From NCBI GenBank assembly GCA_038141705.1, contig JAYQIQ010000004.1, forward strand, positions 120,539 to 184,538: DNA of 64,000 bases, in the 5' to 3' direction. Both the position numbers and the translations under genes were made by a program. The DNA comes from Candidatus Eutrophomonas brisbanensis. Its GTDB lineage: Bacteria; Pseudomonadota; Gammaproteobacteria; Burkholderiales; Eutrophovitaceae. Under the pieces are notes generated by a model. The model ran no database searches. It was not told the origin of the DNA and saw only the letters and a program-made list of their open reading frames with translations. This document shows positions 566-64,000 of the stretch, piece by piece (the first letter of the stretch is position 1; each line of letters begins with the position of its first letter).

Positions 566-1030
566 CTACTTTCTCTTCTGCTGCCGACGCCAATCCCAAG
601 GTGAGACAGGTGATGCTTCGGCCCACAAACCTAACTTATCTTTTCTTGCCTTACTCTCTGCCTCTGCATAAACCTCACGATCACCTGGTGACTGATCTTT
701 TGAATATGCCCGATACCACCAAGCGTTTCCCAACTCCAATTGCCGCAAATTCATGTCGGCTCCATCAAAAAATATCTTACACAACCAACGCTTGTAACGA
801 TCTTTTTTCTCACACCTCGCTTTGATTTGTTTACCTTCAATAGTCTCTTCTAGATAATTTTTAGATACTAGGCCATGCGGCTGATCTTTCTCCGGAGCAT
901 CAATTCCCACCAATCTTATTTTTATCTTGTCCCCGTTCTTAACTAACACCGTAACGGTGTCGCCATCCGCCACCCGAGTCACAGTCCCGGTAAACTCTTC
1001 GGCCTCGCGTCGAAATGGACACCCCAACAA
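566..1030 (-). CDS. Staphylococcal (thermo)nuclease-like SNase-domain protein, probably a lipoprotein whose signal peptide is out of frame
   Basis: The ORF reads TVTRVADGDTVTVL..IRLVGIDAPEKDQP..., the SNase fold signature. The in-frame upstream extension reads FFFLSFLLGC (a lipobox) but has no start codon. The only ATG (1065-1067) is 37 nt upstream, so it is one base out of frame across a T-rich run. Confidence 0.75.
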   Translation of the reverse strand: MLGCPFRREAEEFTGTVTRVADGDTVTVLVKNGDKIKIRLVGIDAPEKDQPHGLVSKNYLEETIEGKQIKARCEKKDRYKRWLCKIFFDGADMNLRQLELGNAWWYRAYSKDQSPGDREVYAEAESKARKDKLGLWAEASPVSPWDWRRQQKRK

Positions 1031-1152
1031 GAAAGATAAGAAAAAGAAATCTAAGTAGAAAGTTCATATTTAAATTCAATCAGTATTACCAATAACCGAT
1101 CGGTATTTTCTGATAATGTTTCCAAATTATTGCTGCCATATTTGGAATAACC

Positions 1153-1548
1153 ATGCCCGCTATCGGAATGAATCATTTCACTATCTTGACTAACGACCTC
1201 GATAAGACACTTGAATTTTATAACGACTTACTAGGCTTAGTACCAGGAGACCGACCACCACTGCCGTTTCCGGGCGCTTGGCTCTATGCTGGCGAACAGG
1301 CCGTGCTTCACGTGATTGCTGGGCGTCAACTGCCAGCTAATGCCGCGGGCGTTATCGACCACATGGCATTTTCGGCAGAGAATCTAATTGAGACAGTCAA
1401 TAAGCTCGAAGCAAGAGGGTTAGAGTATGCCCTACGCCAAGTCACGCCCAAAGACCCCTGGCAACTTTTCTTTCACGACCCCTCGGGGGCAAAGGTAGAA
1501 CTAGACTACCCGAGTGACGAGGCCCTTCCAGCAACAAACCAGTCTTAA
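1153..1548 (+). CDS. VOC-family protein (glyoxalase / bleomycin resistance / extradiol dioxygenase fold)
   Basis: 131 aa, starting MNHFTILTNDLDKTLEFYNDLLGL... with the later HMAF and FFHDPSGAKVEL blocks typical of VOC domains. Confidence 0.75.
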   Translation: MPAIGMNHFTILTNDLDKTLEFYNDLLGLVPGDRPPLPFPGAWLYAGEQAVLHVIAGRQLPANAAGVIDHMAFSAENLIETVNKLEARGLEYALRQVTPKDPWQLFFHDPSGAKVELDYPSDEALPATNQS

Positions 1549-1775
1549 TTCTGTTTGTTTTCCTGCTGTTGATACGTAGATTCTTCGGCGCTTGAAGAAT
1601 CTTCGGTGGAATTAGCTTCTTTTATTTTTTCAATCGGAATATTTCGCTCGTTCTTATAGTATTCGATCCAATTATTCACGTTGCCCTCTTCGATTTCGAT
1701 TGCGGCATCCTTAGCACCAATAATTTGGATATCAATCAATAGTGCAAAAAGAATCGATAATATCAGCCTGAACAC
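1545..1775 (-). CDS. Hypothetical small secreted protein
   Basis: 76 aa with a hydrophobic N-terminus (MFRLILSILFALLI) and an acidic, low-complexity tail. No recognisable family. Confidence 0.3.
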   Translation of the reverse strand: MFRLILSILFALLIDIQIIGAKDAAIEIEEGNVNNWIEYYKNERNIPIEKIKEANSTEDSSSAEESTYQQQENKQN

Positions 1776-1927
1776 TTATATTCGCTCCCAACTAGAACCT
1801 ATCACTAACCAACCGTTGGTTAATTTTTTTTGCTTATCTCATCGTGATTTTGCAGTGCACATTGTCTGCATAAACTGAGAGGTGTATGTTGAGATCATAA
1901 TAAAAAATCATATCTTCGGGGGAATTT

Positions 1928-4077: not shown

Positions 4078-4577
4078 TCACACTTCATTCGTCTTCCTCA
4101 GCAATAGAACCGACACGGACGCGGCAATTCCCTCCTCGCGTCCAATCGTCCCAAGACGCTCGGTCGTTTTAGCTTTTACGTTGATTAGATTTTTTCGAGA
4201 TTTAGCAGCTTGCCTAAACGCGTCTTAATTTGATCGATATAACTCCGCAGTCGTGGTCGCTGAGCATATACAGTAGCATCTACATTACTAATGATGTAGT
4301 TCTGCGCATAAACCAAATCTAGCGCATGCAAAACAAACTGACTACTATCTGCACCTCTCCACTTCGGATCATCATCGGGAAAATGTGTTCCTATATCGTC
4401 AGCTCCCAAAGCGCCGAGTAACGCGTCGCAAAGCGCATGTAAGAGCACATCTGCATCTGAGTGCCCGTCGAGACCTTTTTCATGAGGCACTGAGACTCCT
4501 CCAATAAGAAGCTCTTTACCGTCCACTAGGCGATGTATGTCGAAACCTTCGCCAATCTTGATATCACCTGCTTTCAG
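4078..4577 (-). pseudogene. ispF: 2-C-methyl-D-erythritol 2,4-cyclodiphosphate synthase; reading frame interrupted near the 3' end (probable homopolymer indel)
   Basis: ORF 4185..4526 has the IspF core (LLIGGVSVPHEKGLDGHSDADVLLHALCDALLGA). The same frame continues upstream as IKIGEGFDIHRLVDGKE, with only CTG 4575-4577 (overlapping the ispD TGA) or GTG 4526 as possible starts. The C-terminus INVKAKTTERLGTIGREEGIAASVSV..NEV* lies in another frame (stop 4078-4080). The two frames join if the T6 run at 4190-4195 were T7. Confidence 0.8.
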
Positions 4578-5276
4578 GCCAACCTCCCCTTAAGAATTGA
4601 TTCAGCGCGCGAAATATCACCTGAGAATGTGATCTTTATATTATCAGGAGAGGATTCAACAAGGCGTGAACTTAAACCAATCCCCTCAATGGCTCCTGAC
4701 TCATCTGTGATTTTATCAAGATCGCACGTATTCAAGGCCCGCAAAAGCAACTCGAATCGAAACATTTGCGGCGTTTGAGCAGCCCACAACCTTTCTCTAG
4801 AGACCGTCTCAGAAACAAAGCTCTCAGACGGTTGCTAGCTTTAGAGTATCTGATACCGGGATAGCCAATAAACCACCGACCTCTTCATTCTGAAGAGAAT
4901 TTATTAGCTTTTGTATCAACTCCACCGTGATCAACGGCCGAGCCGCATCGTGGACCAAAACCCAATCTTTGGGATCGACATCATTTTCTATCTTTATAAG
5001 CGCATTTCGAACCGTCTCTGCCCTTGTAGCTCCACCCAATTTAAGAACTCGAACCTTTCTGCCATTAGTCTCCAGACTAAGGGATTCAACATATTGATCT
5101 TCAGGAGACACAACTACGTAAACGGATTCGATGCATGCTTGACTAGAAAAAGTATCGACTGATCTTTTTAGAACAGGGACGCCTCCTAACTCGGCGTACT
5201 GCTTAGATGGTCCGCTGCTTCCGCGAAAACGAGACCCATGGCCTGCAGCCGGAATGATTACGTGATATCTGTTCAT
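4574..5276 (-). pseudogene. ispD: 2-C-methyl-D-erythritol 4-phosphate cytidylyltransferase; reading frame interrupted mid-gene
   Basis: ORF 4824..5276 (MNRYHVIIPAAGHGSRF...) is the N-terminal half. ORF 4574..4789 (..LWAAQTPQMFRFELL..) is the C-terminal half in a different frame. Extending the second frame upstream gives SESFVSETVSRERLWAAQTPQ. The frame switch must lie within 4824-4834. Confidence 0.8.
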
Positions 5277-5386: not shown

Positions 5387-8300
5387 TTGGCGAATAGTAT
5401 TGCTCACCCTATAAAAAATAGTTTACGGATAGCATCTAGGTCTGGAGGGGGATTTTTGATTCCGAAATTCGTATCGGAATCAGATTCGCCAGTGGTGCTC
5501 TTCGTTTCAGAGCCCTCGGATGCAATCAAGCGCTTTGCAGAAATAACATTTTTCAATCCGTCTCTACGCGTGCGGACTTTACCTGATTGGGAAACCCTTC
5601 CTTATGACGCATTTTCTCCGCATCAAGACTTGGTATCTGAGCGCCTTGAGACACTCTATCACCTGACTGAGGAAAAAGTGGACCTGCTTATCGTCCCCGT
5701 TTCGACAGCACTCCATAAGATCGCACCAAAAACGTATTTCAGCCAAAACGTTTTCTTATTGAACGTAGGTGAGCACTTATCTCAAGAGAATTTCAGAGAT
5801 CATTTAAGTAACGCTGGATACGAGCCTGTATCTCAAGTCGTAACGCCTGGTGAGTACAGCATCCGGGGAAGCATCATCGATGTTTTTCCTATGGGAAGTA
5901 TTCTTCCGTATCGGATCGATCTCCTGGATGATGAAATAGATAGCATAAGAACATTCGATGTAGACACGCAGAGGAGTATTTATAAAATTAATGAAATTCG
6001 CGTACTTCCCGCACGAGAATTTCCCACCAACGAAGATGCTATAACTCTATTTCGATCAAATTATCGCGAAATGATCGATGGAGACCCAACTAAGAGTCTC
6101 ATTTATCGAGAGGTATCAAAAGGATCTTTCCCCAGTGGCATCGAATACTATTTACCGCTTTTCTTTAATGACACAGGAACAATATTTAATTACATACCAG
6201 GAAATGCAAAATTAATATACGACCACGATGCATTGAGTGCTATCCAAAATTTTTGGAATGAAACTGAATCTCGATATCGTTTACTGAGAGCCGACTCCGA
6301 GCGCCCATTACTTGACCCGGGCTTTCTTTTCTTGAGGGAAGATCAATTTTTCGGGCAATTGAAATTGTTCGATAGAACTGAGCTCGAATTTTTGGATACC
6401 TCAAATGAGATCTTCTCTAAGCTACCCGATATATCGGTTAACCGACGATTAAAAAATCCGCTTGAGAATTTAAAAAACTTTTTAGAAATCCATGAAGGAA
6501 GATGCGTCCTCATAGCAGATAGCCCGGGGAGAAAAGAAACCATAAGCGAGCTTCTCGGAGCGAATAATATCCCCTTCACCAATGCTGACGACTGGGACAA
6601 GTGCATTAACTCGACGACTCGGTTTTGCGTCACAAATGGAACTATTGATACTGGGTTTATCTATACACCTGATAAATTAGCCGTCATCACCGAAGGGGAA
6701 CTATACCCACAACAGACTCGAGGACGAGGTAGGAATAGACCTTCAACGTCTCCTGAAAATGTTATTCGTGATCTTTCAGAAATTCGAATTGGAGACCCTA
6801 TCGTGCATCTGAATCACGGTATCGGGCGCTACAAAGAGCTCAGCACAATGGATCTTGGAGAGGGGGCTTCTGACTTTTTATGCATTGAATATGCTGAAGG
6901 ATCGGTTCTTTATGTACCAGTCGGGCAGCTTGATCTCGTAAGCCGCTACTCGGGTGGCCCACCCGAGCTCGCGCCCCTACACAAGCTCGGGACTGATAAG
7001 TGGGATAAAGCCAAAAGAAAGGCCGCTGAAAAAATTAGAGATACGGCTGCCGAACTTTTGGGGATATATGCTCAGCGAGCGGCACTGCCTGGTAGGAGCC
7101 ATTCCTTAGATCGGGATATGTATGAGGCATTTTGTGAAGAATTTCCGTTTGAGGAAACCGTCGATCAACAAGCAGCCATTGCCGCCACCATAGAAGACCT
7201 GCAAGCACCGAAACCAATGGATAGGCTAATCTGCGGCGATGTTGGATTTGGAAAAACCGAAGTCGCACTGAGAGCCGCTTTTGTCGCAGTTTCGAATAAT
7301 TATCAAGTGGCGGTTCTAGTCCCTACTACCCTCCTAGCTGAACAGCACTATCAAACCTTTGTCGATCGCTTCAAAGACACTCCAGTGAGAATCGCAGAGC
7401 TCTCTAGATTTCGGAGCAAACTTCAAATCGAGGAGACTAGCAACAATTTAGAAAGCGGAAAAATTGACATCGTTATTGGAACACACAAAATTCTTTCTAA
7501 AGATGTTCGATTCAAAAATCTTGGCTTAGTAATAATTGACGAGGAACACCGCTTTGGTGTTCGACAGAAAGAGGCGTTAAAAGCACTCAGAACCGAGGTG
7601 GATATTCTGACTCTCACGGCGACGCCAATTCCAAGGACACTCGCGATGTCTATGGAGGGCCTCAGAGATTTATCGGTCATAGCGACACCTCCTAGAAGGC
7701 GTCTCGCCATAAAAACATTCGTCAGTCCCTATAGCGAAGGGCTTGTGCGAGAAGCAATTATTCGGGAATTGAAACGTGGCGGACAAATTTTTTATCTCTA
7801 TAACGAAGTCGATTCTATTGAATCGGCTCGAGAAAAACTCCTAAGTATTATCCCAAGCGCAACCGTACGTATTGCGCATGGACAGATGCGAGAGCGCGAA
7901 CTTGAGAACGTCATGAGGGACTTTTATCGAGGTCGTTTTAACATCCTTTTGTGTACAACAATTATCGAAACGGGCATTGATATACCGAATGCCAATACGA
8001 TTATCATCGATCGAGCTGATAAGTTCGGGCTAGCTCAGTTGCATCAACTTCGAGGGCGTGTCGGCCGCTCCCATCACCAGGCATTCGCGTATTTACTAAC
8101 CCCCCGCGGAGTTCCCCTGAAAGGTCAAGCCAAGAAACGTCTTGAGGCAATCCAAATGATGGAGGAACTAGGTTCCGGATTTTTCCTTGCCATGCATGAT
8201 TTGGAGATCCGTGGCGCCGGTGAGGTATTGGGCGACACACAGAGTGGTGATCTTCAAGAGATTGGGTATCAACTCTATACCGATATGCTAAACAGAGCAG

Positions 8301-8812: not shown

Positions 8813-9128
8813 TCCCAGCGATCATCCTTAATAAAAATATTACCCGCCTCCACTTTAACCGGAAACGCATGTATATCCTCCCAGGCGGGGGCGCAGTGAC
8901 CTTGCCGGTTTTAACTGAAAAACGAGCTCCGTGTCGTGGGCAGATAATCTCATCACCCTCTAGAGGACAGCCACTCAAAACCGCACCATCATGCGTACAG
9001 ATGTCCTCTACCGCATAAAAGTTTCCATCAATATGGTATGTGACTACTAATGTTCCATCGAGATTGACCTGGAGCCAACCACTAGAAACTACATCATCAA
9101 CTTTTCCGACTTCAATCCAATCAGACAT
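8809..9128 (-). pseudogene. Rieske [2Fe-2S] ferredoxin-like protein at the end of the suf locus; frameshifted near the C-terminus
   Basis: It carries the CTHDG...CPRHGARF Rieske motif. After ..KVTAPP the track ORF runs into non-homologous sequence. The alternative frame reads WEDIHAFPVKVEAGNIFIKDDRWD* (stop 8809-8811). The frames join if the G5 run at 8887-8891 were G6. Confidence 0.75.
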
Positions 9129-17888: not shown

Positions 17889-18628
17889 TTAACGTCGTTT
17901 CTTTTGTATTGCGCCTAATATTCCCCTCAGAATCCCTACCTCATCCTTCTCCAAATGAATACGAGCAAACATACGACGCAATCGCTGAACCAATTTTCCA
18001 GGATTTTTTCGTTCAAAAAATCGATCTCTAATAGGACGTCTTCCATATGCTCATACATCAACTCGACATCTTCATGTCGCGCTAACTCTGAGACATCATT
18101 TCTCGATTGATAATCTTCATCTAAATTCAATGCCATCAATAATTCGTACGCAAAAACCTGTACAGCTTGCCCTAAATTTAGGGATGCGTAGCTACTCCCA
18201 GTTGGGATTCGTGACAAAACTGATGCAAGCGATGCGTCCTTAACAGACAATCCAGTTCTTTCAGGACCAAAAACAATAGCAACATCGCCGCTAAGCGTTT
18301 TACTTAAGGCCTGTGTCGCTGCCTCTCGAACTGGAAAAACTTGGTGACTCAACTCACGTTCACGAGCTGTCGTTGCTATTGAGTAGACGGTACCCACGAG
18401 CGCATTGGACAAAGCCTCACAGGAGATCGCATTGTCTAAAACATCCAGCGCGCCAGACGCCATAGCAGTCGCGTCAGGATGAGGAAACAATTTTGGGCGC
18501 ACAAGATACAACTTATCTAACCCCATGACTTTCATCGCACGCGCCGCTGCTCCAATATTTCCGGGATGGCTAGTCTCTACTAGAACGACACGAATACGAC
18601 TGAGATTTGTTTGATCGCTCATCATCAA
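17889..18628 (-). pseudogene. trmJ: tRNA (cytidine/uridine-2'-O)-methyltransferase TrmJ (SpoU family); C-terminus frameshifted
   Basis: SpoU motifs are present (VLVETSHPGNIGAAARAM, IVFGPERTGL). After ..LLEIDF the track frame gives unrelated sequence. The alternative frame reads ERKNPGKLVQRLRRMFARIHLEKDEVGILRGILGAIQKKRR* (stop 17889-17891). The switch is at the A6 run at 18015-18020. Confidence 0.8.
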
Positions 18629-29182: not shown

Positions 29183-29857
29183 TTATTCTAAAGCAATTTT
29201 CAAGGCAGCCGAGGTCGCGAGAGGGCACAAAGCTAGAGAGAGACAGAGGAACGCAAGCAAGATCGAGAAATGGCCGATTGTCTCCATCCCCTGTAAACTG
29301 GCAACAGTGCCTCCAACCCCAAAGATTAATACTGGAATATAAAGGGGAAGAATGAGAAGCGCAGTTAATGCCGCCCCGCTTCGCACCCCAAGCGTTAACG
29401 CAGCACCGACCGACCCTAGTAAGGAGAGCACTGGAGTACCAATTAAAAGAGTAAGCGCCATTATCCATGAAGCCTCAGCGCTAAGACCGAACTGCATACC
29501 AACGAAAGGCGACAAAATAACGATTGGCAAGGTCGTAATTAGCCAGTGTGCAAAAATTTTTGAAACCACAACCAGCACTAATGGCTCCCCCGACAAAAGA
29601 AATTGTTCTAGAGAACCATCAATAAAATCACTCTCAAACATCCGATGGAGTGCTAACAAAGACGAGAGCAACGCCGCTACCCAAACCACACCAGGCCCCA
29701 CCGTTCTTAAGCTGCCAAGTATCAGGGCCAACAGCAAATGGGAATAATGAGGCAACAATCAAAAAAAGAAAAATATCGTTGCAATATCAGTTTTTTGCGT
29801 CAGTGAAATCTTAAATTCACGAAGCAAAACAGCCAAAAATAATGATCGCGAGCGCAT
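29183..29857 (-). pseudogene. ccmB: Heme exporter protein CcmB; two frame interruptions in the N-terminal third
   Basis: ATG 29855-29857 gives MRSRSLFLAVLLREFKISLTQKTDIATIFFFF*. The next frame reads LIVASLFPFAVGPD.. and the track ORF frame (29183..29758) reads ..LRTVGPGVVWVAALLSSLLAL. The switches are at the A7 run 29761-29767 and at about 29716-29724. Confidence 0.8.
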
Positions 29858-30915: not shown

Positions 30916-31343
30916 TCACAGAATATGCTTAATTAGAAATACCACTACAAATCCCGCGATCATAAAACTCACCGTTGCAGCCAGCGATCTTGGTGATAAC
31001 CGAGAAAGCCCAACAACACCATGGCCACTGGTACACCCGCGGCGTAACGAGTTCCGATTCCGACGAGCAGCCCTGCAAGAACCAAGCTATAGGTCGAGGC
31101 TTCGATAATGGCCTCAGGCACTGCAGCAAAAATACCATACACAAACGATGAGGCCAGGAGCCCGATTAAGAACATCGATCTCCAGCCTAATTCAGATGAC
31201 TTTCCACTGATTACTCCCCCGAGAATCCCACTGATTCCCGCTATTTTCCCATTCATAAATATGAAAATTGCCGTGGATATCCCTAAGAGAACGCCACCAG
31301 CTAACGACATCCATGGCGTGAATACATCCCAATTTATAGTCAT
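30916..31343 (-). pseudogene. YeeE/YedE-family (DUF395) membrane protein; frameshifted
   Basis: Track ORF 30969..31343 ends ..[15 protein letters not shown].. The alternative frame gives [40 protein letters not shown] (stop 30916-30918), which carries the family's conserved GCTSGHG motif. The frames join if the C3 run at 31036-31038 were C4. Confidence 0.7.
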
Positions 31344-34933: not shown

Positions 34934-36234
34934 TTATTTTTTTCGATCTTCCTCATCCAGGCGGCGAAGAAAATCCAGCTTTTCTTGAATTTTTCTTTCA
35001 AGCCCTCGCTCGGTCGGAAAATAAAAACGTTGCCCCCTCAAACCATCTGGAAGTATTGTTCGTTTGGAGCGTACCCATAAGCCTCGTCATGAGCATACCG
35101 ATATTTTTCTCCAAAACCGAGTTCCTTCATCAATTTGGTAGGTGCATTCCGAAGATGTATCGGCACCACCTCCGAGCTCGAAGATTTAACAGTCTCTAAA
35201 GCACTATTATAGGCGGAATACAGCGCATTACTTTTTGCAGCACAAGCCATGTAAACAACTGCCTGTGCCAGTGCGAGCTCGCCCTCAGGACTTCCCAACC
35301 TTTCGAAGGCGGACACAGCATCTAATGCAATTGAAAGTGCTTTGGGGTCAGCAAGACCGATATCCTCAGAAGCCATTCTTATCACTCTACGACCGACATA
35401 CAGTGGGTCTGCGCCACCATCAATCATACGAACGAACCAATAAAGGCTCGCATCTGGGTCAGAGCCTCGCACCGATTTATGTAGCGCGGATATCTGATCG
35501 TAAAACGAATCACCACCTTTATCGAATCGGCGATACGCATGAGGCATTGTTTCGAACACAAACGCCTCGTCTATTCTCTCAAGACCAAGCTCATCGGCAG
35601 TATGATTCAAAAATTCCAGCATATTAAGAAGCCTTCGGCCATCGCCATCTGCGAGACTAACAACCGCATCGACAGCCTTCGATTCGTACTTAGCTTTTGC
35701 ATCAAGCGACGACAACCCTTTTGAAAATATTTCAAAAAGATCATCACGCGTTAGTGACTCGAGCTTAAACACAGTAGCCCGAGAGAGTAATGCGCTATTT
35801 ACTTCGAACGATGGGTTTTCTGTCGTAGCACCGATGAAAGTGATGGTTCCACCCTCTACATGTGGAAGAAATGCGTCTTGTTGCGACTTGTTAAAGCGAT
35901 GAACCTCATCTACAAATACTACCGTTTGTCTGGAAAATTGGGTGATATTATTTTCAGCCAGCACAATAACTTCTCGAATGTCTTTAATCCCGGATAGGAC
36001 GGCTGAGATTTGAACAAACTCCGCACTCCAGCCGTTGGCGATAATTCGCGCGAGAGTCGTCTTACCCACACCAGGGGGACCCCAAAATATCAGAGATTGA
36101 GGTTTACCTACTCGATGAATTGTAGATAGCGGCTTTCCGTCACCCACTAGGTGTTTTTGACCAACGAATTCCTCAAAAGTATTAGGCCGGAGTATGTCGG
36201 CAAGTGGCTTTGTGATTGATTTACTAATATGCAT
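34934..36234 (-). pseudogene. rarA: Replication-associated recombination protein A (MgsA/RarA); C-terminal frameshift
   Basis: Track ORF 35038..36234 has Walker A GPPGVGKTT and ends ..NEQYFQMV*. The alternative frame continues PDGLRGQRFYFPTERGLERKIQEKLDFLRRLDEEDRKK* (stop 34934-34936). One base is missing near 35049. Confidence 0.9.
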
Positions 36235-41399: not shown

Positions 41400-43072
41400 C
41401 TAGGAATCCCTCCCGACTTCGCCCCGAAAAGTGCTAGTGATCGGGAAACGCCAATCTTTGCCGAACGCTCGTCGGGTAATCCTGACTCCTGGAGGGGCCT
41501 GACGTCGCTTGTATTCATTGATGTGAATTAAACGGACTATTCTTTCCACATCCGCCCTTGGATATCCTGCTTGGACAATTTCTTCGATGCTCCTATTTTG
41601 CTCAACATACTGCTCAACAACAGCATCGAGAGTGTCGTATGGAGGAAGCGAGTCCTGATCTAATTGATCTGGTCGCAGCTCAGCACTCGGAGGTCTTTCA
41701 ATAATACGATTCGGTATCACTTGAGAAAGACTATTCCTGTACTTACACAACCGATAAACCATCTGCTTACCTAAATCCTTGAGGACCGCAAAGCCCCCGC
41801 CATGTCGCCATACAACGTGGCATAACCAGTGCTCATCTCACTTTTATTTCCCGTCGTCAACACTAGAGAACCAAATTTATTAGACATACTCATCAGTAGC
41901 GTCCCTCGGATCCTAGATTGGAGATTTTCTTCTGTGGTATCGAACTCTCGACCAACAAAAACCGAAGAGAGGCCTGCAATAAATTCATCAAAAATAGGTT
42001 TTATAGCAATTTCCTCGTACGTGACATCGAGGATTTCAGCCATTTTCCTGGCATCCTCCAAACTAATGTTGGCAGTAAACTGAGATGGCATCATGACGGC
42101 AGTTAAGTTCTCAGCTCCCAAGGCATCCACGGCTACGGCAAGCGTTAAAGCAGAATCGACACCACCAGAAAGACCAATAATTGCGCCCTTGAAACCATTT
42201 TTTAATACGTAATCTCTCACCCCTTGAACTAAAGCCTCATATGCGGCCTTCTCCTCGGTTTCTGGGTACGCATGGCGCACCCCAATCACATCACCTCGGT
42301 CAATCTCAACGCAGTCCATTGACTGTGAAAATGCAGGTGACTGAAATCCCATATCTCCATTCGAGGTAACCGCGAAAGACGCACCATCAAATACAAGTTC
42401 ATCCTGTCCGCCAACCATATTGCAAAACACGATTGGCATATCCAGCGCCCTAGCCCTTCCAGAAACAAGATCCGTGCGAATCGCCTGCTTTGCGAGATGG
42501 AACGGTGATGCATTTAAAACGAGTAATACCGTCGCGCCAGCATCCTTTGCAGACCGCGCGGCCCGAACTAAAGATAAATCTCCAGCATTCTCGACAACAT
42601 CAATTTCCTCGGCTCGTCCTCCCCAAATGTCCTCACAAATATTGACACCAATACGCACACCATTCACAGAGAACACACATGCATCAAGTCCAGGATCGAA
42701 ATATCGATCCTCGTCAAAAACATGGTAATTTGGAAGCTCTTGTTTGAAGTATCGGCCGATGATTTTTCCATTTTGGATAATCGAGGCAGCGTTGTAGAGT
42801 CGATTATTTTCGCGATAGGGATGCCCAACAACCAGAGTTATATTCTCGGTCTTTGCCCGCAATGACTCTAGCTCTAAATCACACCCCTTCAAAAAGTCTT
42901 CGCGAAGCAACAAATCTTCCGGAGGATAGCCAGAGATGGCAAGCTCAGGAGTGACAACAATATCGGCACCATCAACTTTTGCCTTTTCTAGAGCATTTGA
43001 AATTTTCTCGCCATTCCCGGTCAAATCTCCTACAGTACAATTTAGCTGAGCGAGCAATATTTTTATCGGCAT
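41400..43072 (-). pseudogene. nadE: Glutamine-dependent NAD+ synthetase (CN-hydrolase + NAD synthase domains); frameshifted
   Basis: ORF 41771..43072 ends ..YATLYGDMAGALRSSRI*. The alternative frame gives GFAVLKDLGKQMVYRLCKYRN.. and continues into ORF 41400..41762. The frames join if the C5 run at 41794-41798 were C6. Confidence 0.9.
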
Positions 43073-44278: not shown

Positions 44279-44790
44279 GTGGTCTTTGGTTTCTACGATA
44301 ACTTAACGTCTCGTCAGCAGAGCATATACCGTCAAAGCGACGAAATTAAATATCTCAGGCTAGCAGAAACTTCTCAACTCACGGCGCTGGCTAACGAACT
44401 CGTGGAAACGCTGCCGACTGAGAATAAAAAGGCTGTAGAAAAAATCTGCCAAACAATCGTTGATACCATCAATAACCAATTCAATGCACCCCCACTAAAA
44501 TTACAAGTACTTGCGGTACGCCCATCAGCAGACTGGGGGAACTCCACGGCCTATACCTCCCAGAAGACGATGGTGAACTTGCAAAAATTCAGGTTTGGAT
44601 GCGGACAGCAAAAAATAAAAAAATCGTAGCTTTTAAAAGTTTTTTGCGGACTGTTCTCCACGAGCTGTGTCACCACTTGGACTACGAGCACTTCGGATTT
44701 CCGGCGACATTTCACACCGAAGGGTTTTACAGTAGAGAGTCGAGTTTATTTAAACAAATTTATATACCAAAAGAAAACGCCGGCGATTAG
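44279..44790 (+). pseudogene. Hypothetical HExxH-motif protein (putative metallopeptidase-like); frameshifted
   Basis: ORF 44279..44629 and ORF 44599..44790 (..LRTVLHELCHHLDYEHF..) lie in different frames. The alternative frame reads GELHGLYLPEDDGELAKIQVWMRTAKNKK. The frames join if the G5 run at 44535-44539 were G6. Confidence 0.5.
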
Positions 44791-54039: not shown

Positions 54040-55241
54040 TTACCAACCCGCTTCTTTCTCTGGCGAACTAGATACCTTATGGATTGCCAGGTCGGCCCCA
54101 ATAAACTCGTCCTCTTCGCTCATACGAATACCCACCATGCTCTTTAAGACACCATATACAATCGCCCCGCCTACGAGCGCCACGATAATTCCAGCGATCG
54201 TTCCAACCAACTGCGACATGAAGGAGACTCCACCTACACCTCCGAGCGACTCAAGACCGAAAATTCCAGCTGCAATCCCACCCCAAGCACCACACAAACC
54301 ATGCAGAGGCCATACACCCAAGACGTCGTCGATTTTCCAGCGATTCTGCGTGACAGTGAACATGTAGACAAAAAGACCACCAGCGATCGCCCCAGTGACT
54401 AAAGCCCCAAGCGGATGCATGATGTCTGATCCCGCGCAGACCGCAACCAAACCAGCAAGAGGGCCGTTGTGAACGAATCCAGGATCGTTACGGCCCACAA
54501 CTAAAGCGGCTAAGGTACCACCAATCATCGCCATTAAGGAATTCAGAGCAACAAGCCCGCTAATAGCTTCGATCGTTTGCGCCGACATCACGTTAAAACC
54601 AAACCAGCCAACTGTCAGCATCCAAGCACCGAGCGCTAGAAACGGAATACTGGATGGCGGATGCGAAGCGATTCCCCTTCCTTTCGGTAACGCCCTTTAC
54701 GAGCGCCAAGCAACATTACTGCCGATAAAGCAATCCAGCCGCCAACCCCATGAACAACAACCGATCCTGCAAAGTCTCGCATCGGCGAACCGAAAATTGC
54801 CTCAAGCCATTCCTGAAAACCAAAGTTTCCGTTCCAGATCATTCCCTCGAAAAATGGGTAAAGAACGCCCACAATAATGGCGCTCGCAAATAGCTGGGGA
54901 TAAAATTTGGCGCGCTCTGCTATACCACCCGAGATAATTGCCGGAATCGCTGCAGCGAACGTTAACAAGAAGAAAAACTTAACGAGACCGTACCCACCGT
55001 TCTCGGCAAGCACATTCGCACCCACCATAAATCCCGTTCCGTAAGCAACAATGTATCCAACAAAGAAATATGCAATAGTTGAAATAGAAAAATCACAAAG
55101 GATTTTAACGAGGGCGTTCACCTGGTTCTTCTTACGAACCGTTCCCACTTCAAGGAAGGCGAAACCTCCGTGCATCGCGAGCACCATGATCGCGCCGAGT
55201 AAAATAAATAGAACGTCAGACGACGAATTTACCGCATCCAT
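54040..55241 (-). pseudogene. amtB: Ammonium transporter (Amt family); frameshifted mid-gene
   Basis: ORF 54636..55241 is the N-terminal half and ORF 54040..54621 is the C-terminal half (..TVGWFGFN..). The alternative frame reads GIASHPPSSIPFLALGAWMLTVGWFGFN. The frames join if the C4 run at 54674-54677 were C5. Confidence 0.9.
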
Positions 55242-55400: not shown

Positions 55401-55435
55401 CTGCCAATAAAAATGCACTTTAATAGAGCGAAATA

Positions 55436-55882
55436 ATGGAGAAGAATATGAAACCCACGCTCGTAGAGGGTTTAAAACACACCCACCAATTTACTGTTTC
55501 GGAAAATAAGACCGTTCCCAATCTTTATCCCGAGTCAGACCTATTCCAAGATATGCCAAACGTCTTTGCGACGGGATTCATGGTCGGGCTTTTGGAATGG
55601 GGGTGCATTGAATTGATTAGGAACCACCTTGACTGGCCTCACGAGCAAACTCTCGGTATCCACGTTAATTTTTCACACTTATCCCCGACGCTCCCAGGCA
55701 TGACAGTCACTGTGGACTCCGAGCTTACAAAAATAGAGGGCAGAAAATTGACATTTAAAGTTCGCGCCCATGATGGCATTGATACCATTTCAGAGGGGAT
55801 CCATGAACGCGCGATCATCTCGCGCGAAAAATTCTTAGAAAAACTCGAGCAAAAAAACAGAAAATTACCTAACGCTACTTAG
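55436..55882 (+). CDS. Hotdog-fold thioesterase family protein (FlK-like)
   Basis: 148 aa with ..VFATGFMVGLLEWGCIE.. and ..GRKLTFKVRAHDG..ISEGIHERAII, typical of this thioesterase subfamily. Confidence 0.65.
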   Translation: MEKNMKPTLVEGLKHTHQFTVSENKTVPNLYPESDLFQDMPNVFATGFMVGLLEWGCIELIRNHLDWPHEQTLGIHVNFSHLSPTLPGMTVTVDSELTKIEGRKLTFKVRAHDGIDTISEGIHERAIISREKFLEKLEQKNRKLPNAT

Positions 55883-57053: not shown

Positions 57054-57062
57054 TTAACTAAC

Positions 57063-58023: not shown

Positions 58024-58800
58024 ATGCCTAAATTCAATGCAAACCTATCGATGCTTTTTAATGAAGTCGATTTTCTTGATCGATTTTCAAGGGCAAAACG
58101 CTCTGGATTTAGAGGGGTGGAATTTCTTTTTCCGTATGCTTTTGAGGCGAACGAGATTTTAGATAAATTGCAAGAAAATCAACTTGAAATGGTTTTATTT
58201 AACCTCCCACCCGGCGACTTTGAAAATGGCGACCGTGGATTGGCCGTAGACCCCAGACGCAAGGGAGAATTCCAAGATAGCGTCGATCGAGCGATTGAAT
58301 ACGCGAGAGCGCTGAATTGCTCACAGCTACATTGTATGGCTGGCTTAACCCCCGATGAGTTTGAGGCAAATACGCTCACTGAAAATTACATTTCTAATAT
58401 CCAATTTGCCGCGGACGTTTGTAAAACTCACAACATCGACATATTAATCGAAGCCATTAATACGAGAGACATCCCGGGATACTTCTTGAATTATTCGTCA
58501 CAGGCTCTCGATGTTCTATCGAAGGTCAATCGACCTAATACATATTTTCAGTATGACATTTATCACATGCAAATCATGGAAGGGGATTTAATCCCAACGA
58601 TTCAAAGAATCCTCCCTATGATTAAGCATATGCAATTAGCGGATACCCCGGGACGGCACGAGCCAGGAACTGGAGAAATAAACTACGGCAATCTCTTTAA
58701 TGCAATCGATGAGATGGGGTATGACGGTTGGATTGGTTGTGAATATCGACCAAAAGAAAATACGGAGGATGGTCTATCTTGGATAAAACCGTACCTCTGA
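58024..58800 (+). CDS. hyi: Hydroxypyruvate isomerase
   Basis: The Met at 58024 gives MPKFNANLSMLFNEVDFLDRF.. and the C-terminus has GWIGCEYRP. The track start at 57913 is an upstream extension. Confidence 0.9.
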   Translation: MPKFNANLSMLFNEVDFLDRFSRAKRSGFRGVEFLFPYAFEANEILDKLQENQLEMVLFNLPPGDFENGDRGLAVDPRRKGEFQDSVDRAIEYARALNCSQLHCMAGLTPDEFEANTLTENYISNIQFAADVCKTHNIDILIEAINTRDIPGYFLNYSSQALDVLSKVNRPNTYFQYDIYHMQIMEGDLIPTIQRILPMIKHMQLADTPGRHEPGTGEINYGNLFNAIDEMGYDGWIGCEYRPKENTEDGLSWIKPYL

Positions 58801-58864
58801 AGCAACGTATACTTCTGAAAATTAAAATAGATTCATCAATATCAAATCTACCGAGGTAAAAAGA

Positions 58865-59746
58865 ATGAAAATTGGTTTTATTGGACTTGGCATCATGGGT
58901 AAACCAATGGCGTCTCAAGTCATTAAAGGTGGTTACGAAGTATTTTTATTTTCGAGGACCTCTGTACCATCAGAGCTGACTGAACTTGGAGGGACCGCCT
59001 GCGCCAGCGCAGTGGATGTCGCTACAGCAGCCGATATTGTGATGCTGATGGTGCCGGATACGCCCGATGTTGAGAAAGTTCTTTTTGGTCAGGACGGCAT
59101 CGCAAGCTCTCTTTCCCCAGGCAAAACGATCGTTGACATGAGCTCGATCTCCCCTATCGCCACCAATGAATTCGCTAAAAAAATTCAAGATCTTGGGTGT
59201 GGCTATATTGACGCACCTGTTTCTGGTGGGGAGGTTGGAGCGACCAATGCAACACTGACTATTATGGTCGGCGCCACTGAGCAAGATTTTGAAAAAGTAA
59301 AACCAATTTTTGAATTGATGGGAAAAAACATTACCCACGTAGGGGATGTCGGCGCAGGACAAGTCTGTAAAGTCGCAAATCAGGTAATCGTTGCTCTGAA
59401 CATCGAGGCTGTGAGCGAAGCATTACTCTTAGCCTCTAAAGCTGGAGTAGACCCAGAGCGCGTCAGGCAAGCACTTATGGGTGGATTTGCGTCTTCGAAA
59501 ATACTGGAAATTCATGGTGAGCGAATGATCAAGCGAACGTTTAATCCTGGATTTCGTATTGAGTTACACCAAAAGGATTTAAACCTTGCTCTTTCCACTG
59601 CGAAGAGTCTTGGTGTCTCACTTCCGAACACCTCGAACGCTCAAGAGTTATTCAATTCTTGCAAAGCGCATGGTGATCATGCAAAAGATCATTCGGCGAT
59701 GGTTACCGCCCTAGAACGTTTAGCCAATCACAGAGTTGATCAATGA
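58865..59746 (+). CDS. glxR: 2-hydroxy-3-oxopropionate (tartronate semialdehyde) reductase
   Basis: 293 aa with MKIGFIGLGIMGKPMA (Rossmann fold) and DAPVSGG. This is the beta-hydroxyacid dehydrogenase family. Confidence 0.9.
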   Translation: MKIGFIGLGIMGKPMASQVIKGGYEVFLFSRTSVPSELTELGGTACASAVDVATAADIVMLMVPDTPDVEKVLFGQDGIASSLSPGKTIVDMSSISPIATNEFAKKIQDLGCGYIDAPVSGGEVGATNATLTIMVGATEQDFEKVKPIFELMGKNITHVGDVGAGQVCKVANQVIVALNIEAVSEALLLASKAGVDPERVRQALMGGFASSKILEIHGERMIKRTFNPGFRIELHQKDLNLALSTAKSLGVSLPNTSNAQELFNSCKAHGDHAKDHSAMVTALERLANHRVDQ

Positions 59747-61008
59747 AAGATCGGCAATCTGAATTCCTTCGGGCACTTTTTAACGTTGCGATTGAGGCAG
59801 CTTTACCTGCAAAAACGATTCAACAACACATTCCGAAACCGCCAAAAGGTCGAACAATTGTAATTGGTTGCGGAAAAGCGGCAGCGACGATGGCAAGTTC
59901 ATTTGAACGCAGCTGGCAACACGAGTTGAGCGGACTAGTAGTTACGCGTTACGGACATAAAGTAGAAACCAGCCGTATAGAGGTTTTGGAGGCCTCCCAC
60001 CCGATACCTAATGAAGCCGGTATGGAGGCAACGACCCGAATTCTCGAGCTACTTACTGATACAACTGAAGATGATTTAGTCGTGTTTCTCGTCTCCGGCG
60101 GTGGATCTGCACTCTTCACGCTACCCGCGCCAGGCCTCACCTTACTAGACAAAATGGAGATTAATGCGGCCTTACTGAGTAGTGGTGCAAATATTACCGA
60201 GATGAATTGTGTAAGGAAACATCTCTCAGCAGTAAAAGGTGGGAGACTCGCGCGAGCAATCCATCCAGCGAAATGTTTAACACTAGCCATTTCTGATATT
60301 CCAGGTGATGAGCTCGCGGTGATTGCATCTGGGCCCACCACACCAGACCAAACAACATTCAGCGATGCGCTTGCAATCTTGAGTAAATACGGAATCACAA
60401 AACCTAAATCGGTGTTAGAACATTTACGAGCGGGTATAGACGAGACCCCAACGCACGAGGATCCCGCATTTGAGAACGTAGAGACGAAATTAATTTCCAC
60501 CCCGCAAATGTCTCTCGAGGCCGCTGCAGATCTCGCGAAGCAAAATGGATACACGCCGATTATTCTGGGTGATGCCATCGAGGGAGAAGCGCGCGAGGTC
60601 GCTCGAGTCATGGCAGCAATTACCAAACAAGTGATTCGGCATGGTCAACCATCCAAAGCTCCTTGTATCCTACTCTCCGGCGGAGAAACCACCGTGACTG
60701 TCAGAGGCAAGGGACGCGGCGGAAGAAATGTGGAATTTCTGCTCGCACTTTCTTTAGAGCTATCACACTACAAAAATGTATGGGCCCTCTCTGGTGATAC
60801 GGATGGGATTGACGGCACAGAAGAAAATGCTGGCGCAATTATTAACCCATCGACAATCCCGCGAGCGCTAGAGCTTGGTCTAGACGCCAAGGCAATGCTC
60901 GCGGATAATGATGGATATTCATTTTTCGAAGCGCTGAACGATCTCGTGATAACGGGTCCAACGCTTACCAATGTAAACGACTTTAGAGCCATTCTGATTG
61001 AATCCTAA
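59743..61008 (+). CDS. ttuD: Glycerate 2-kinase / hydroxypyruvate reductase family (DUF4147 + MOFRL; TtuD-like)
   Basis: 421 aa with GCGKAAATMA, LVSGGGSAL, SGGETTV and GTDGIDG blocks. Confidence 0.85.
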   Translation: MKDRQSEFLRALFNVAIEAALPAKTIQQHIPKPPKGRTIVIGCGKAAATMASSFERSWQHELSGLVVTRYGHKVETSRIEVLEASHPIPNEAGMEATTRILELLTDTTEDDLVVFLVSGGGSALFTLPAPGLTLLDKMEINAALLSSGANITEMNCVRKHLSAVKGGRLARAIHPAKCLTLAISDIPGDELAVIASGPTTPDQTTFSDALAILSKYGITKPKSVLEHLRAGIDETPTHEDPAFENVETKLISTPQMSLEAAADLAKQNGYTPIILGDAIEGEAREVARVMAAITKQVIRHGQPSKAPCILLSGGETTVTVRGKGRGGRNVEFLLALSLELSHYKNVWALSGDTDGIDGTEENAGAIINPSTIPRALELGLDAKAMLADNDGYSFFEALNDLVITGPTLTNVNDFRAILIES

Positions 61009-61013
61009 TTAAT

Positions 61014-62513
61014 ATGGGACACACCGAAGCACATTTAATCGAAAATCCGGTACCGAGTGCCACTAAACAAGAGCTCATCACAAAATTGAGTCGAGTTTTA
61101 GCGTCGGAGTGCCTGAAGCATTTAGAAGAGGATTTAAAACCGTTTGAATGCGATGGACTATCAGCCTACCCGAAGGTCCCAATGTTGGTCGCACTTCCAA
61201 CGTCTGAACACGAAGTTTGCGAAGTGCTTAAGATCTGCTATGAAAATAATGTTCCAGTCGTCTTCAGAGGCGCAGGGACTGGCCTATCAGGTGGTGCCAT
61301 ACCTTATGAGAAAGGACTTTTGTTAGTTCTATCAAAACTTAATAAGATTGTTCAAATTGATCCCGTTTCGAGAACTGCGATTGTTCAACCAGGAGTAAGG
61401 AACGCCGCGATCTCGCAAGCCAGCGCTAAACACAAACTCTATTACGCTCCAGATCCATCTAGTCAAATTGCTTGCTCGATTGGTGGCAATGTCGCGGAAA
61501 ATTCCGGTGGTGTGCACTGTCTCAAATACGGACTGACAGTTAACAACATTCTAAAAATCCGATTTGCAACAATCGAGGGCGACATCATAGAAATTGGCGC
61601 CGAAGGGCTCGATAGTCCTGGATATGATCTACTCGCTTTAATTACTGGATCCGAAGGATTACTCGGGGTCGTCACCGAGATTACCGTAAAACTACTCCCC
61701 TCTCCAGAACGGGCTCAGGTCGTAATGGCGGCATTTGACGACGTCGCGAAGGCCGGGAGAGCCGTTGGAGACATTATTGCGGCCGGCATCATTCCAGCAG
61801 GACTGGAAATGATGGATCAAAAAGCGACGGGCGCGGTTGAGCAATTCATAGGCGCCGGCTACCCGTTGGATGCGGCGGCCATCCTACTTTGCGAATCCGA
61901 TGGCACCGAAGAGGAAGTAGCAAATGAAATTGAAAAAACGATTGAAGTCTTAAACAAAGCGGGTGCGACAAAAATAGAAGTCTCTCGAGACGATGCGCAT
62001 CGCTTAAAATTGTGGGCTGGTAGAAAATCTGCATTCCCAGCTGTCGGGAGAATTCTTCCAGACTATTTTTGTATGGATGGAACCATCCCCAGAAAAAACG
62101 CTCCCTACGGTGCTGGAGCGGATCGCAGAAATGGAGACTACCTACAATTTACAGTGTGCGAACGTATTTCATGCAGGCGATGGTAACTTGCATCCGCTCA
62201 TCATGTTTGATGCAAATGATAAAGATCAGCTACGTCGCGCTGAACAGTATGGTGCCGCAATCCTCGAGCTCTGCGTCGAGGTAGGAGGCACGATCACGGG
62301 TGAACACGGAGTTGGGATGGAAAAAATCAATCAAATGTGCGTTCAATTCCAGCCTGACGAATTGTCATCGTTTCTTCAAATCAAAAAAGTTTCGACGAAA
62401 AAGGTCTACTCAATCCAGGTAAGGCAGTGCCAACACTAAATCGATGTGCAGAGTTTGGAATGATGCATGTACATCGAGGGGAAGAACGCTTCCCTGATCT
62501 TCCAAGATTTTAG
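61014..62513 (+). pseudogene. glcD: Glycolate oxidase subunit GlcD (FAD-binding PCMH type); two frameshifts in the C-terminal quarter
   Basis: ORF 61014..62186 ends ..DGTIPRKNAPYG.. and ORF 62077..62439 reads ..TLPTVLERI..NVFHAGDGNLHP... The third frame reads DEKGLLNPGKAVPTLNRCAEFGMMHVHRGEERFPDLPRF* (stop 62511-62513). The switches are at the A6 run 62093-62098 and the T3 run 62390-62392. Confidence 0.9.
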
Positions 62514-62535
62514 AGACTCAAACCAGAAATTTTCG

Positions 62536-63594
62536 ATGCAAGATATGGACTCGATCATTCTCGACCTTCGCGATCAACTAGCAAAGGCAAAGGAAAGTGG
62601 TGAAACCATTCGAATTCGAGGAGGTGGATCCAAAGACTTCTATGGATTATCGAAACAAGGAAAGACGCTAGAAACGACGGCATTAAGTGGGATCATCGAA
62701 TACGAACCAACCGAATTAGTGTTAACCGCTTATGCTGGAACACCTCTTTCAGAAATCGAAGCAGCACTTGCCCAAAATAATCAGATGCTACCGTTTGAAC
62801 CACCCTACTTTGGTGAAAACGCAACGTTTGGCGGTTGTATAGCAACGGGTTTATCCGGTCCGAGACGAGCCACAATGGGAGCAGTGCGGGATTTCGTGTT
62901 AGGGGTACGAATCCTCGATGGCAACGGAAAAGATTTAAGTTTCGGTGGAAAAGTCATGAAAAACGTGGCTGGCTTTGACGTTTCTCGCGTACTCACTGGC
63001 TCTAATGGAACCTTGGGTTTAATACTCTCCGCATCCGTGAAAGTACTCCCTAAACCTGAAGTGGAAAAAAGCGTTTGTTTTGTAATCGGTGAGAAAGAAG
63101 CGATCGTCAAGATGAATGAGATTGCAGGACTTCCAGTCCCGTTGTCTGGCAGCTGCTTTGATGGTGAAAAACTTGTAATTAGACTCTCCGGCGCTGGTGC
63201 AGCAGTTAGAGCTGGAATCGAAAGAATTGGTGGTGATGGTTTTAATGACCAAAACTTTTGGGACGAAGTAAAGGAGCAGCGACATCCTTTTTTCAGAAAA
63301 ACTGGAACACTCATTCGACTATCAATTAACAGTGCGTCACCGCCAATCGAGAACGAGCAAACCTTTTTAGAATGGAGTGGAAGTTTACGCTGGCTTTGGA
63401 GCTCACAAGATCTCCACCATTATCAAGAAATAGCAAAAACGCTGGGCGGCAACGCTTCAATATTTAGGTCAGACGTCACTTGTACTGAGATTATGAAGCT
63501 CTCTAGACCGATGATGAGACTTCAGGAAAAAGTCAAACAATCACTCGACCCACACGGTCTTTTCGGAAAAAACCGAATGTTTAAAGAATTCTAG
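62536..63594 (+). CDS. glcE: Glycolate oxidase subunit GlcE
   Basis: The Met at 62536 (MQDMDSIILDL..) begins a FAD-binding domain with IRIRGGGSKDFYG. The track start at 62467 overlaps the restored glcD end. Confidence 0.85.
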   Translation: MQDMDSIILDLRDQLAKAKESGETIRIRGGGSKDFYGLSKQGKTLETTALSGIIEYEPTELVLTAYAGTPLSEIEAALAQNNQMLPFEPPYFGENATFGGCIATGLSGPRRATMGAVRDFVLGVRILDGNGKDLSFGGKVMKNVAGFDVSRVLTGSNGTLGLILSASVKVLPKPEVEKSVCFVIGEKEAIVKMNEIAGLPVPLSGSCFDGEKLVIRLSGAGAAVRAGIERIGGDGFNDQNFWDEVKEQRHPFFRKTGTLIRLSINSASPPIENEQTFLEWSGSLRWLWSSQDLHHYQEIAKTLGGNASIFRSDVTCTEIMKLSRPMMRLQEKVKQSLDPHGLFGKNRMFKEF

Positions 63595-63611
63595 TAGCAC
63601 GGTCGATAAAG

Positions 63612-64000
63612 ATGAAAACGAATATCTCGCAACAACTACTAGACACGAGACAAGGTCGGGAAGCGAACGATATCCTTCGCGCTTGTGTGCACTGTGGTTT
63701 TTGCACAGCGACATGCCCGACTTATCAACTGCTGGGGGACGAACTCGACAGCCCCAGGGGACGGATCTATCTCATCAAAGAAATCCTCGAAGGCCAGAAG
63801 CCAACAATCGAGACACAAAAACACTTAGATCGTTGCTTGACGTGTCGCTCGTGTGAATCCACTTGTCCCTCTGGGGTTCAATATGGGCGCCTCGTGGATA
63901 TCGGACGAGAGATTGTAGAAAAAATGTATCTCGATCGCTCCTCGATAATGCAAAGCGAAATTTGCTCAACAAAATTATTCCAAATCCAAAGTTGTTTCGA
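63612..64000 (+). pseudogene. glcF: Glycolate oxidase Fe-S subunit GlcF; partial at the window edge, with a frameshift
   Basis: ATG 63612 gives MKTNISQQLLDT..CVHCGFCTATCPTY..CLTCRSCESTCPSG. After ..IVEK the frame changes and the alternative frame reads NVSRSLLDNAKRNLLNKIIPNPKLFR. The switch is at the A6 run 63919-63924. Confidence 0.85.

Follow-up and report, generated by a model that had tools for sequence, protein, structure and literature searches.

The frequency with which conserved genes are interrupted in the 64-kb stretch of DNA analysed here (the window), which derives from an uncultured betaproteobacterium, raises the question of whether its reading frames were broken in the organism or in the assembly. 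Three-frame translation and nucleotide alignment to relatives identified 23 frame breaks, each of ±1 nt, in 21 of the ~68 genes of the window (~31%), a density of about one event per 2.6 kb of coding sequence. The relatives are contigs of independent public assemblies (several NCBI MAGs, several JGI metagenomes, ENA assemblies and Logan assemblies), publicly labelled 'Burkholderiales bacterium' or 'Betaproteobacteria bacterium', which share 90-98.7% nucleotide identity with the window and together tile all of it; close relatives of the organism occur in many public metagenomes. Each site is covered by one to eight relatives, with only one at the nuclease, nadE and HExxH protein genes. An initial annotation had listed 22 of these sites, in what it counted as 19 genes although its own list names 20. 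All 22 are real ±1 frame breaks, each with a 1-nt alignment gap relative to close relatives; the adjacent frame carries the conserved continuation at every listed gene, and the homopolymer runs cited are present in the window where they had been placed. For the nuclease, trmJ and the second glcD event, the break stands but its placement does not: the nuclease break is at ~1005-1012, past the signal peptide, not at 1031-1050; that in trmJ falls in the T run at 18004-18009 (T7 in relatives), not in the A6 run at 18015-18020, which is A6 in relatives too; and the glcD event is an A7 to A6 change at 62383-62388 rather than in the T3 run at 62390-62392. The list had also overlooked the break in the FlK-like thioesterase gene. 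The events are as follows, with L numbers designating individual relatives.

1003..1012, minus strand: SNase-like nuclease, one extra base right after the signal peptide; gap at ~1005 relative to L171
4190..4195, minus strand: ispF, T run one base short (T6; 7 nt, TTTTTAT, in L171 and L173)
4827..4834, minus strand: ispD, one extra base, non-run; gap at 4833 relative to L171, L172 and L173; product 233 aa in relatives
8887..8891, minus strand: Rieske ferredoxin, one base lost (G5; GGGAGG in three agreeing relatives)
18004..18013, minus strand: trmJ, one base lost, T7 to T6; T7 in L084, L086 and L171
19210..19211, plus strand: suhB, one base lost, non-run; relative GATACGTATACC, window GATAC-TATACC; seven relatives concordant
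20248, plus strand: mutS, extra G, non-run; relatives CTC-AGATA, window CTCGAGATA; eight relatives concordant; intact homologue of 853 aa, 95% identity
23865..23868, minus strand: ccmI, C5 to C4; C5 and an intact 413-aa CcmI in relatives
29761..29767, minus strand: ccmB, first event, A8 to A7; 8 in L089 and L090
29719, minus strand: ccmB, second event, one extra base ~45 nt downstream of the first, reinstating the frame; coding strand GATA-TTGG in relatives, GATACTTGG in the window
30133, minus strand: ccmA, one extra base; relatives GGCT-TTAT, window GGCTCTTAT
31036..31038, minus strand: YeeE/YedE-like membrane protein, C4 to C3; L089 and L090 concordant; orthologue in L001 one uninterrupted ORF
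31529, minus strand: acyl-CoA dehydrogenase, one extra base 22 codons ahead of the stop
35052..35054, minus strand: rarA, one base lost, CC to C on the coding strand; L089 and L114 concordant
36472, minus strand: lolA, one extra base, non-run; relatives GTGAA-GATT, window GTGAACGATT
41794..41798, minus strand: nadE, C5/G5 run one base short; 6 nt in L114; product 557 aa in this relative
44535..44539, plus strand: HExxH hypothetical protein, 170 aa, G6 to G5 relative to L174
48196, minus strand: BKACE-family enzyme, extra A, non-run; L174 and L175 concordant; 307/306 aa in relatives
54674..54677, minus strand: ammonium transporter (amtB), C5 to C4; L169, L170 and L174 concordant; 400 aa in relatives
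55851..55857, plus strand: FlK-like thioesterase, A8 to A7; A8 in L169, L170 and L174
62093..62098, plus strand: glcD, first event, A5 to A6, the sole run expansion; product 499 aa in relatives, 96-99.4% identity
62383..62388, plus strand: glcD, second event, A7 to A6, reinstating the frame
63919..63924, plus strand: glcF, A7 to A6; L169 and L170 concordant

All 23 events are changes of a single nucleotide, comprising 14 deletions, which are mostly homopolymer contractions, and nine insertions, eight of which are outside runs. The initial estimate of about 13 events in runs of three or more is borne out (12 of the 22 listed sites, or 13 of 23 with the added one). Nine of the 23 events, eight of them insertions, occur away from runs or in a run of just two bases, and are unexplained by a pure homopolymer model. 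Genes carry one lesion each, with the exception of two mutually compensating pairs, in ccmB and glcD. Alignment to the relatives revealed neither premature stops nor any large deletion or insertion in the window genes, and no insertion sequences, the window being collinear with its relatives across all 64 kb.

A one-base edit at each site turns every gene back into one full-length ORF whose only stop codon is the terminal one. Most of the repaired proteins match NCBIfam profiles over nearly their whole length, with an alignment that runs unbroken through the junction: IspF (TIGR00151, 1-154/155), IspD (TIGR00453, 2-219/219), MutS (TIGR01070, 1-840/840), NadE (5-544/546), LolA (TIGR00547, 4-201/202), the doubly repaired CcmB (2-211/211), GlcD (9-489/499), TrmJ (2-241/246), SuhB (1-257/267), CcmA (TIGR01189, 1-191/198), BKACE (14-262/267) and the ammonium transporter (1-402/406). 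The repaired Rieske ferredoxin, at 106 aa, equals the relatives' gene in length and matches profile positions 4-99/106, RarA gives a one-stretch match over residues 7-421, and the repaired N-terminus of GlcF matches GlcF 1-130/409. The nuclease and CcmI give only partial NCBIfam matches after repair and the HExxH protein gives none; these repairs are supported by an intact ORF of the repaired length in a relative (170 aa for the HExxH protein). In the case of the nuclease, the relative (166 aa, 90.8% identity) reads MNCLLRFFFLICLVGISISARAEEFTG..., and the window changes frame between ...VSIST and R.AEEFTG. The thioesterase break changes the final four residues and lengthens the ORF, so that the protein ends ...EQKNRKLPNAT in the window, ...EQKNKKIT once repaired and ...EQKKQKIT in the relative, each followed by the stop. 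The repaired acyl-CoA dehydrogenase (393 aa) is 100% identical to the protein of L089 and L090, and the 14-kb locus around it differs from theirs by 3% in DNA overall.

Comparison with orthologous loci in close relatives, which the initial annotation had proposed, revealed that every one of the 23 indels is private to the window: the relatives carry none of them, their gene calls are of the repaired length and no alignment contains a frame-breaking gap assignable to a relative. The other intragenic gaps relative to the relatives are of 3 or 6 nt (4094, 22230-22236 and 46490). Coding constraint was estimated on either side of the breaks. In the broken genes, pN/pS is 0.135 downstream of the breaks compared with 0.144 upstream (Fisher p = 0.73), both far below 1; in intact genes it is 0.082. 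In number and in transition/transversion ratio, substitutions private to the window for the most part stay inside the range that the relatives span, the lone outlier in this ratio (20 transitions to 1 transversion) resting on 21 sites. The proportion of runs with altered length rises with run length, from 0.3% of 4-nt runs to 0.75% (5 nt), 2.4% (6 nt), 12% (7 nt) and 30% (8 nt); this tally covers runs of at least 4 in the relative, where all changes are shortenings, and leaves the glcD A5 to A6 expansion unscored. Event positions fit a uniform distribution along the window (KS p = 0.88), the 21 of 68 genes affected compare with 18.6 expected from gene length alone, and the essential genes ispD, ispF, lolA and nadE are among those broken.

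Since the indels are unshared by close relatives and accompanied by no evolutionary decay, we infer that the 23 frame breaks are almost certainly single-base indel errors in the assembly consensus, not gene loss or other mutations in the organism. The initial annotation had likewise preferred base-calling or assembly indel error to pseudogenisation, and the private indels, the unrelaxed selection downstream and the lack of other lesions uphold this preference, as do the length-dependent contraction of homopolymers and the uniform placement of events regardless of gene essentiality. Its description of the error as one of homopolymers holds for the run contractions, whereas the events at non-run and 2-base-run sites imply general consensus indel error rather than purely homopolymer miscalling. 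The errors would stem from a signal-based technology prone to indels, because homopolymers are under-called, isolated non-run insertions occur and substitutions look normal. The most likely candidate is nanopore or another noisy long-read consensus, obtained at low coverage, without short-read polishing, or both.

Each of the biological alternatives that had been raised, namely mismatch-repair deficiency, genome decay and slippage-based expression, fails at least one direct test. Since even the closest relatives differ from the window by 1.3-3% in DNA, very recent real mutations in a single strain are conceivable. The sequence could then be a faithful record of one environmental betaproteobacterial cell or clone in which the +1 insertion at 20248 abolished MutS and an indel burst followed as a consequence, a natural hypermutator sampled before it was purged. 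Although mutS itself is among the broken genes, and replication slippage would produce the same pattern of deletions, mostly in mononucleotide runs and commoner with run length, we consider this history very unlikely. Nine of the 23 events, that in mutS included, lie outside runs of at least three, run changes are nearly all contractions rather than a mixture of expansions and contractions, and neither private substitutions nor transitions are in excess on the branch leading to the window. Moreover, ispD, ispF, lolA and nadE would have to be inactive simultaneously within 64 kb, codons downstream of the breaks show no relaxation of constraint, and the density extrapolates to the order of at least 1,000 frameshifts per genome, which, from what is known of essential pathways, would not be viable.

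Genuine decay, in which genes become pseudogenes under relaxed selection, for example after a recent host restriction, is more improbable still. The frame-broken share is of the size known from recently host-restricted bacteria such as Sodalis and Mycobacterium leprae, but nonsense mutations, large deletions and insertion sequences are all absent from this collinear stretch, genes have a single lesion barring the two compensating pairs, pN/pS in the broken genes is as low after the break as before it, no relative has any of the lesions in common with the window and the same population carries intact genes in many metagenome assemblies. Expression despite the frameshifts, through programmed ribosomal frameshifting or transcriptional slippage, merits the least credence: slippage is conceivable at some sites, which consist of 6-7 nt of A or T, but these are shorter than the poly(A) tracts of roughly 9-10 nt described for slippage rescue in endosymbionts, a slippery sequence is missing from nine sites, the frame would have to be corrected in both directions (+1 and -1), including same-gene pairs 45 nt and ~290 nt apart, and the relatives are single-frame at every site, implying that there is no conserved recoding signal.

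With consensus error as the preferred explanation, the relevance of these sites is to data hygiene and not to biology. Taken at face value, the sequence would imply that mismatch repair, the MEP isoprenoid pathway, NAD synthesis, lipoprotein sorting, cytochrome c maturation, ammonium uptake and glycolate oxidation had been lost. From these 64 kb, gene callers would yield ~40 truncated proteins, lowering completeness estimates and polluting protein databases, and the remaining genome is probably frameshifted about once in every 2.6 kb of coding sequence. The analysis provides 23 correctable coordinates and demonstrates that artefact can be told from biology without reads, by means of public contigs from close relatives.

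Amongst known systems, the genomes of Sodalis glossinidius and Mycobacterium leprae resemble the window in their high fraction of frame-disrupted genes, but there the lesions are of mixed types and shared across the lineage, IS elements have expanded and dN/dS is relaxed, none of which is seen here. Mismatch-repair-deficient mutator lineages are similar in their mononucleotide-run indels and disrupted mutS, whereas the window has neither a transition excess nor a longer branch, many of its events are non-run and essential genes are broken. The flow-based methods, 454 pyrosequencing and Ion Torrent, also generate frameshifting run-length errors. These are both over- and under-calls and are centred on runs, so that the isolated non-run insertions of the window (in mutS, lolA, acyl-CoA dehydrogenase, BKACE, ccmA, ccmB and ispD) fit them less well. 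Nanopore consensus indels in homopolymers are a documented cause of frameshifted gene calls, in genomes as well as in MAGs (Sereika et al., 2022; PMC9262707). The window is like R9-era nanopore and other noisy long-read consensus errors, with their 'IDEEL' signature of truncated proteins, in having only ±1-nt indels, homopolymer under-calling that rises with length, unaffected substitutions, genes split between ORFs in adjacent frames, about once per 2.6 kb of coding DNA, and full-length proteins upon repair against a reference. It differs in its eight non-run insertions, which exceed the strict homopolymer expectation and suggest low coverage or a mixed-strain consensus.

The initial annotation held, from sequence alone, that about 22 +/-1 frame breaks interrupt conserved genes of the window and that they are most economically read as artefacts of the assembly. 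The homopolymer runs that it named were found at their coordinates, and stop-to-stop translation in three frames revealed, for every listed gene, a conserved continuation in an adjacent frame (G+C content over the 64 kb is ~46%). IspF, for example, reads to LNLEKI and a stop codon and continues in the next frame to NLINVKAKTTERLGTIGREEGIA; MutS reads to AAGALLE in one frame and has a 13-residue stretch in another; and the C-terminus of the acyl-CoA dehydrogenase, ISREMILCYIAEKVLGLPRSY followed by its stop codon, is out of frame. Once a base had been inserted or deleted at each site, every gene lying wholly within the window read as one ORF closed by a single stop codon and, in a profile search, the NCBIfam match to the repaired proteins was unbroken across the junction, apart from the HExxH protein, the nuclease and CcmI. 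Of these, the first had no NCBIfam match when repaired and no Pfam match in a relative's copy, and the repaired nuclease and CcmI gave partial NCBIfam matches only; in all three, the repair is backed by an intact ORF of the repaired length in a relative.

NCBIfam profile match of the repaired proteins, and length of the gene calls in relatives
SNase nuclease: relatives 166 aa
IspF: profile positions 1-154 of 155
IspD: profile positions 2-219 of 219; relatives 233 aa
Rieske ferredoxin: relatives 106 aa
TrmJ: profile positions 2-241 of 246
SuhB: profile positions 1-257 of 267; relatives 264 aa
MutS: profile positions 1-840 of 840; relatives 853 or 842 aa
CcmI: relatives 413 aa
CcmB: profile positions 2-211 of 211
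CcmA: profile positions 1-191 of 198
LolA: profile positions 4-201 of 202
NadE: profile positions 5-544 of 546; relatives 557 aa
HExxH protein: relatives 170 aa
BKACE: relatives 307 aa
Ammonium transporter: profile positions 1-402 of 406; relatives 400 aa
GlcD: profile positions 9-489 of 499; relatives 499 aa
GlcF: profile positions 1-130 of 409 (the gene runs off the window)

When CcmF was used as a query against genome contigs, the best of the matches listed had 74% amino acid identity, and judged by these distant relatives the organism is a betaproteobacterium. In one relative's contig (L001), a single ORF encodes each of trmJ, suhB, mutS, ccmI, ccmB, ccmA and the yeeE-like gene, and their order matches that of the window. 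Three protein queries, MutS and GlcD as repaired and the intact Mfd, returned clusters of near-identical proteins (94-99.8% identity), and a metagenome scan identified two JGI contigs whose encoded protein matches the repaired acyl-CoA dehydrogenase at 100% identity. Together, the encoding contigs span the window from end to end, at 90-98.7% nucleotide identity. For a provisional correction of the frames, GCA_038113905.1, GCA_038113015.1 or the JGI contigs Ga0255766_10003310 and Ga0255761_10003524 would serve as references.

Contigs of relatives covering the window, with nucleotide identity
1-18164: L171-L173 (an NCBI MAG and two Logan assemblies), 90-91%
15964-27155: L081-L088 (ENA, NCBI MAGs and JGI), 91.4-97.4%
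21467-38519: L089 and L090 (JGI), 97.0%
31941-42632: L114 (JGI), 92.7%
42557-62943: L174 (GCA_038113905.1), 97.9%
51015-64000: L169 and L170 (NCBI MAGs), 97.2-98.7%

Near-identical contigs come from several JGI metagenomes, from ENA and Logan assemblies and from at least eight NCBI MAGs, the latter labelled 'Burkholderiales bacterium' or 'Betaproteobacteria bacterium'. Most are only 2-36 kb long, a hint that the population is widespread and rich in closely related strains. Among the genes of the window itself are the suf/isc Fe-S cluster genes, ccmA-I and glcDEF, as well as those for an ammonium transporter and for a PQQ dehydrogenase with its cytochrome c.

Nucleotide alignment to these relatives placed a 1-nt gap at all 22 listed sites; at sites covered by more than one relative, the relatives are unanimous against the window, and the proteins called in relatives are exactly as long as the repaired ones. 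Most of the coordinates in the initial annotation stood, but the alignments moved three: the nuclease break lies at ~1005-1012, 3' of the signal peptide, as seen from a relative's sequence, the trmJ event in the T-run 18004-18009, and the second glcD event in the A-run 62383-62388. They also added a site that had escaped the list, an A8 to A7 change at 55851-55857 that alters the C-terminus of a FlK-like thioesterase. This gives 23 frame-breaking indels in 21 of ~68 genes, none of which is attributable to a relative. All other in-gene gaps are of 3 or 6 nt (4094, 22230-22236 and 46490; in the ispF C-terminus, an 83-aa ORF and a 404-aa gene) and, unlike the 23 single-base events, represent natural variation in length with the frame preserved; the rest of the gaps lie between genes. 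Intergenic 1-nt indels private to the window occur at 1792, 30481-30486, 50261, 50358, 50369-50376 and 58850 (one to three relatives per site). Two private intergenic indels are contractions of 7- and 8-base runs, and the changes in the non-coding runs 30481-30486 and 50369-50376 follow the pattern seen in genes. These private intergenic indels probably arose by the same error process, or they may be natural intergenic variation.

Some irregularities proved to be of another kind. The split of MutS (193 + 640 aa) in L083, a contig of MAG GCA_038113905.1, was considered as a shared frameshift and rejected, as it coincides with a run of Ns (L083 ~1465-1475). In L169 a break (5943-6044) divides glycerate kinase into 56 + 383 aa, with ~55 nt of the window aligning on both sides of it, and in L175, a further relative's contig that aligns at window 51918, a run of Ns interrupts the PQQ dehydrogenase. 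All of these blemishes are scaffolding gaps, not frameshifts. An extra frameshift at the start of ispF, where no in-frame ATG, GTG or TTG precedes the conserved N-terminus KIGEGFDIH, was likewise rejected, since the relatives are arranged alike with no gap. At the ispD/ispF junction (4574-4577, minus strand) a CTG that shares bases with the stop codon of ispD (CTGA) lies 5 nt past a Shine-Dalgarno-like GGAGG; this arrangement is kept in L171 and L173, where IspF is called as a truncated 148 aa, and has the appearance of a natural start, non-canonical or translationally coupled, rather than an indel. Separately, 11 nt (CATTTAATTTT) are missing at 33487-33488, directly past the acceptor end of tRNA-Ser(CGA) (33488-33574, minus strand). 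They are present in L089, L090 and L114, including the CA of the genomically encoded CCA, and the gap also falls in the stop region of a convergent gene (32734-33498).

Of the 14 deletions, 12 fall in homopolymer runs (at least four bases long in the closest relative, or broken up there by a substitution), one is CC to C and one lies outside runs; among nine insertions, one expands a run (A5 to A6) and eight lie outside runs. When the runs that the window shares with its closest relative were tallied, the fraction changed in length rose from ~0.1% (1-3 bases) through 0.3% (4), 0.75% (5), 2.4% (6) and 12% (7) to 30% (8), the glcD A5 to A6 expansion being unscored; in runs of at least four bases every tallied change was a shortening. 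A noisy long-read consensus, at low coverage or without short-read polishing, would be expected to under-call homopolymers and to carry occasional isolated insertions alongside normal substitutions, and we infer a platform of this type. Flow-based chemistries are a weaker alternative because the eight insertions lie outside runs.

Three biological explanations, a MutS-deficient mutator clone in which the indels are real, genome decay, and recoding of the frameshifted genes, are very improbable even when taken together. In codon-by-codon comparison with the nearest relative, pN/pS was 0.144 upstream of the breaks (3639 codons) versus 0.135 downstream (2219 codons; Fisher p = 0.73), far below 1 on either side (intact genes, 0.082). 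No nonsynonymous excess was seen downstream of the breaks; by a rough calculation, one would show had these segments gone untranslated over even a small part (more than a few percent) of the window's private branch. The window contains no premature stops, large deletions or insertion sequences, and is collinear with its relatives throughout. It has 47 private substitutions versus 60 and 49 in relatives (one three-way comparison over 6.6 kb), and transition/transversion ratios were mostly 1.9-4.5 versus 1.8-4.4 in relatives, with one outlier of 20:1 in a comparison of 21 sites; neither a consistent transition excess nor a longer window branch was found. Event positions fit a uniform distribution (KS p = 0.88), 21 genes carry events versus 18.6 expected under random placement by gene length, and mean length is the same for broken and unbroken genes. 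ispD, ispF, lolA and nadE, whose functions are normally indispensable in such bacteria, are broken like any other gene. A mutator clone is rejected on four counts, namely the events outside runs, a bias in which runs only contract, an unremarkable substitution branch, and essential genes that would all be lost at once. Decay conflicts with dN/dS, the lesion spectrum and the restriction of the lesions to the window, and recoding fails because no site is out of frame in the relatives and nine of the sites lack a slippery sequence.

Consensus error in this assembly is the simplest account of the indels, as the initial annotation had proposed: privacy, constraint, lesion spectrum, placement and substitutions all fit, and the frame breaks are not a biological feature. 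The source sample may have held mixed strains, as the many closely related strains in public metagenomes suggest, which could degrade a long-read consensus. The effect of noisy long-read consensus errors on gene calls has been described in genomes and MAGs (PMC9262707).
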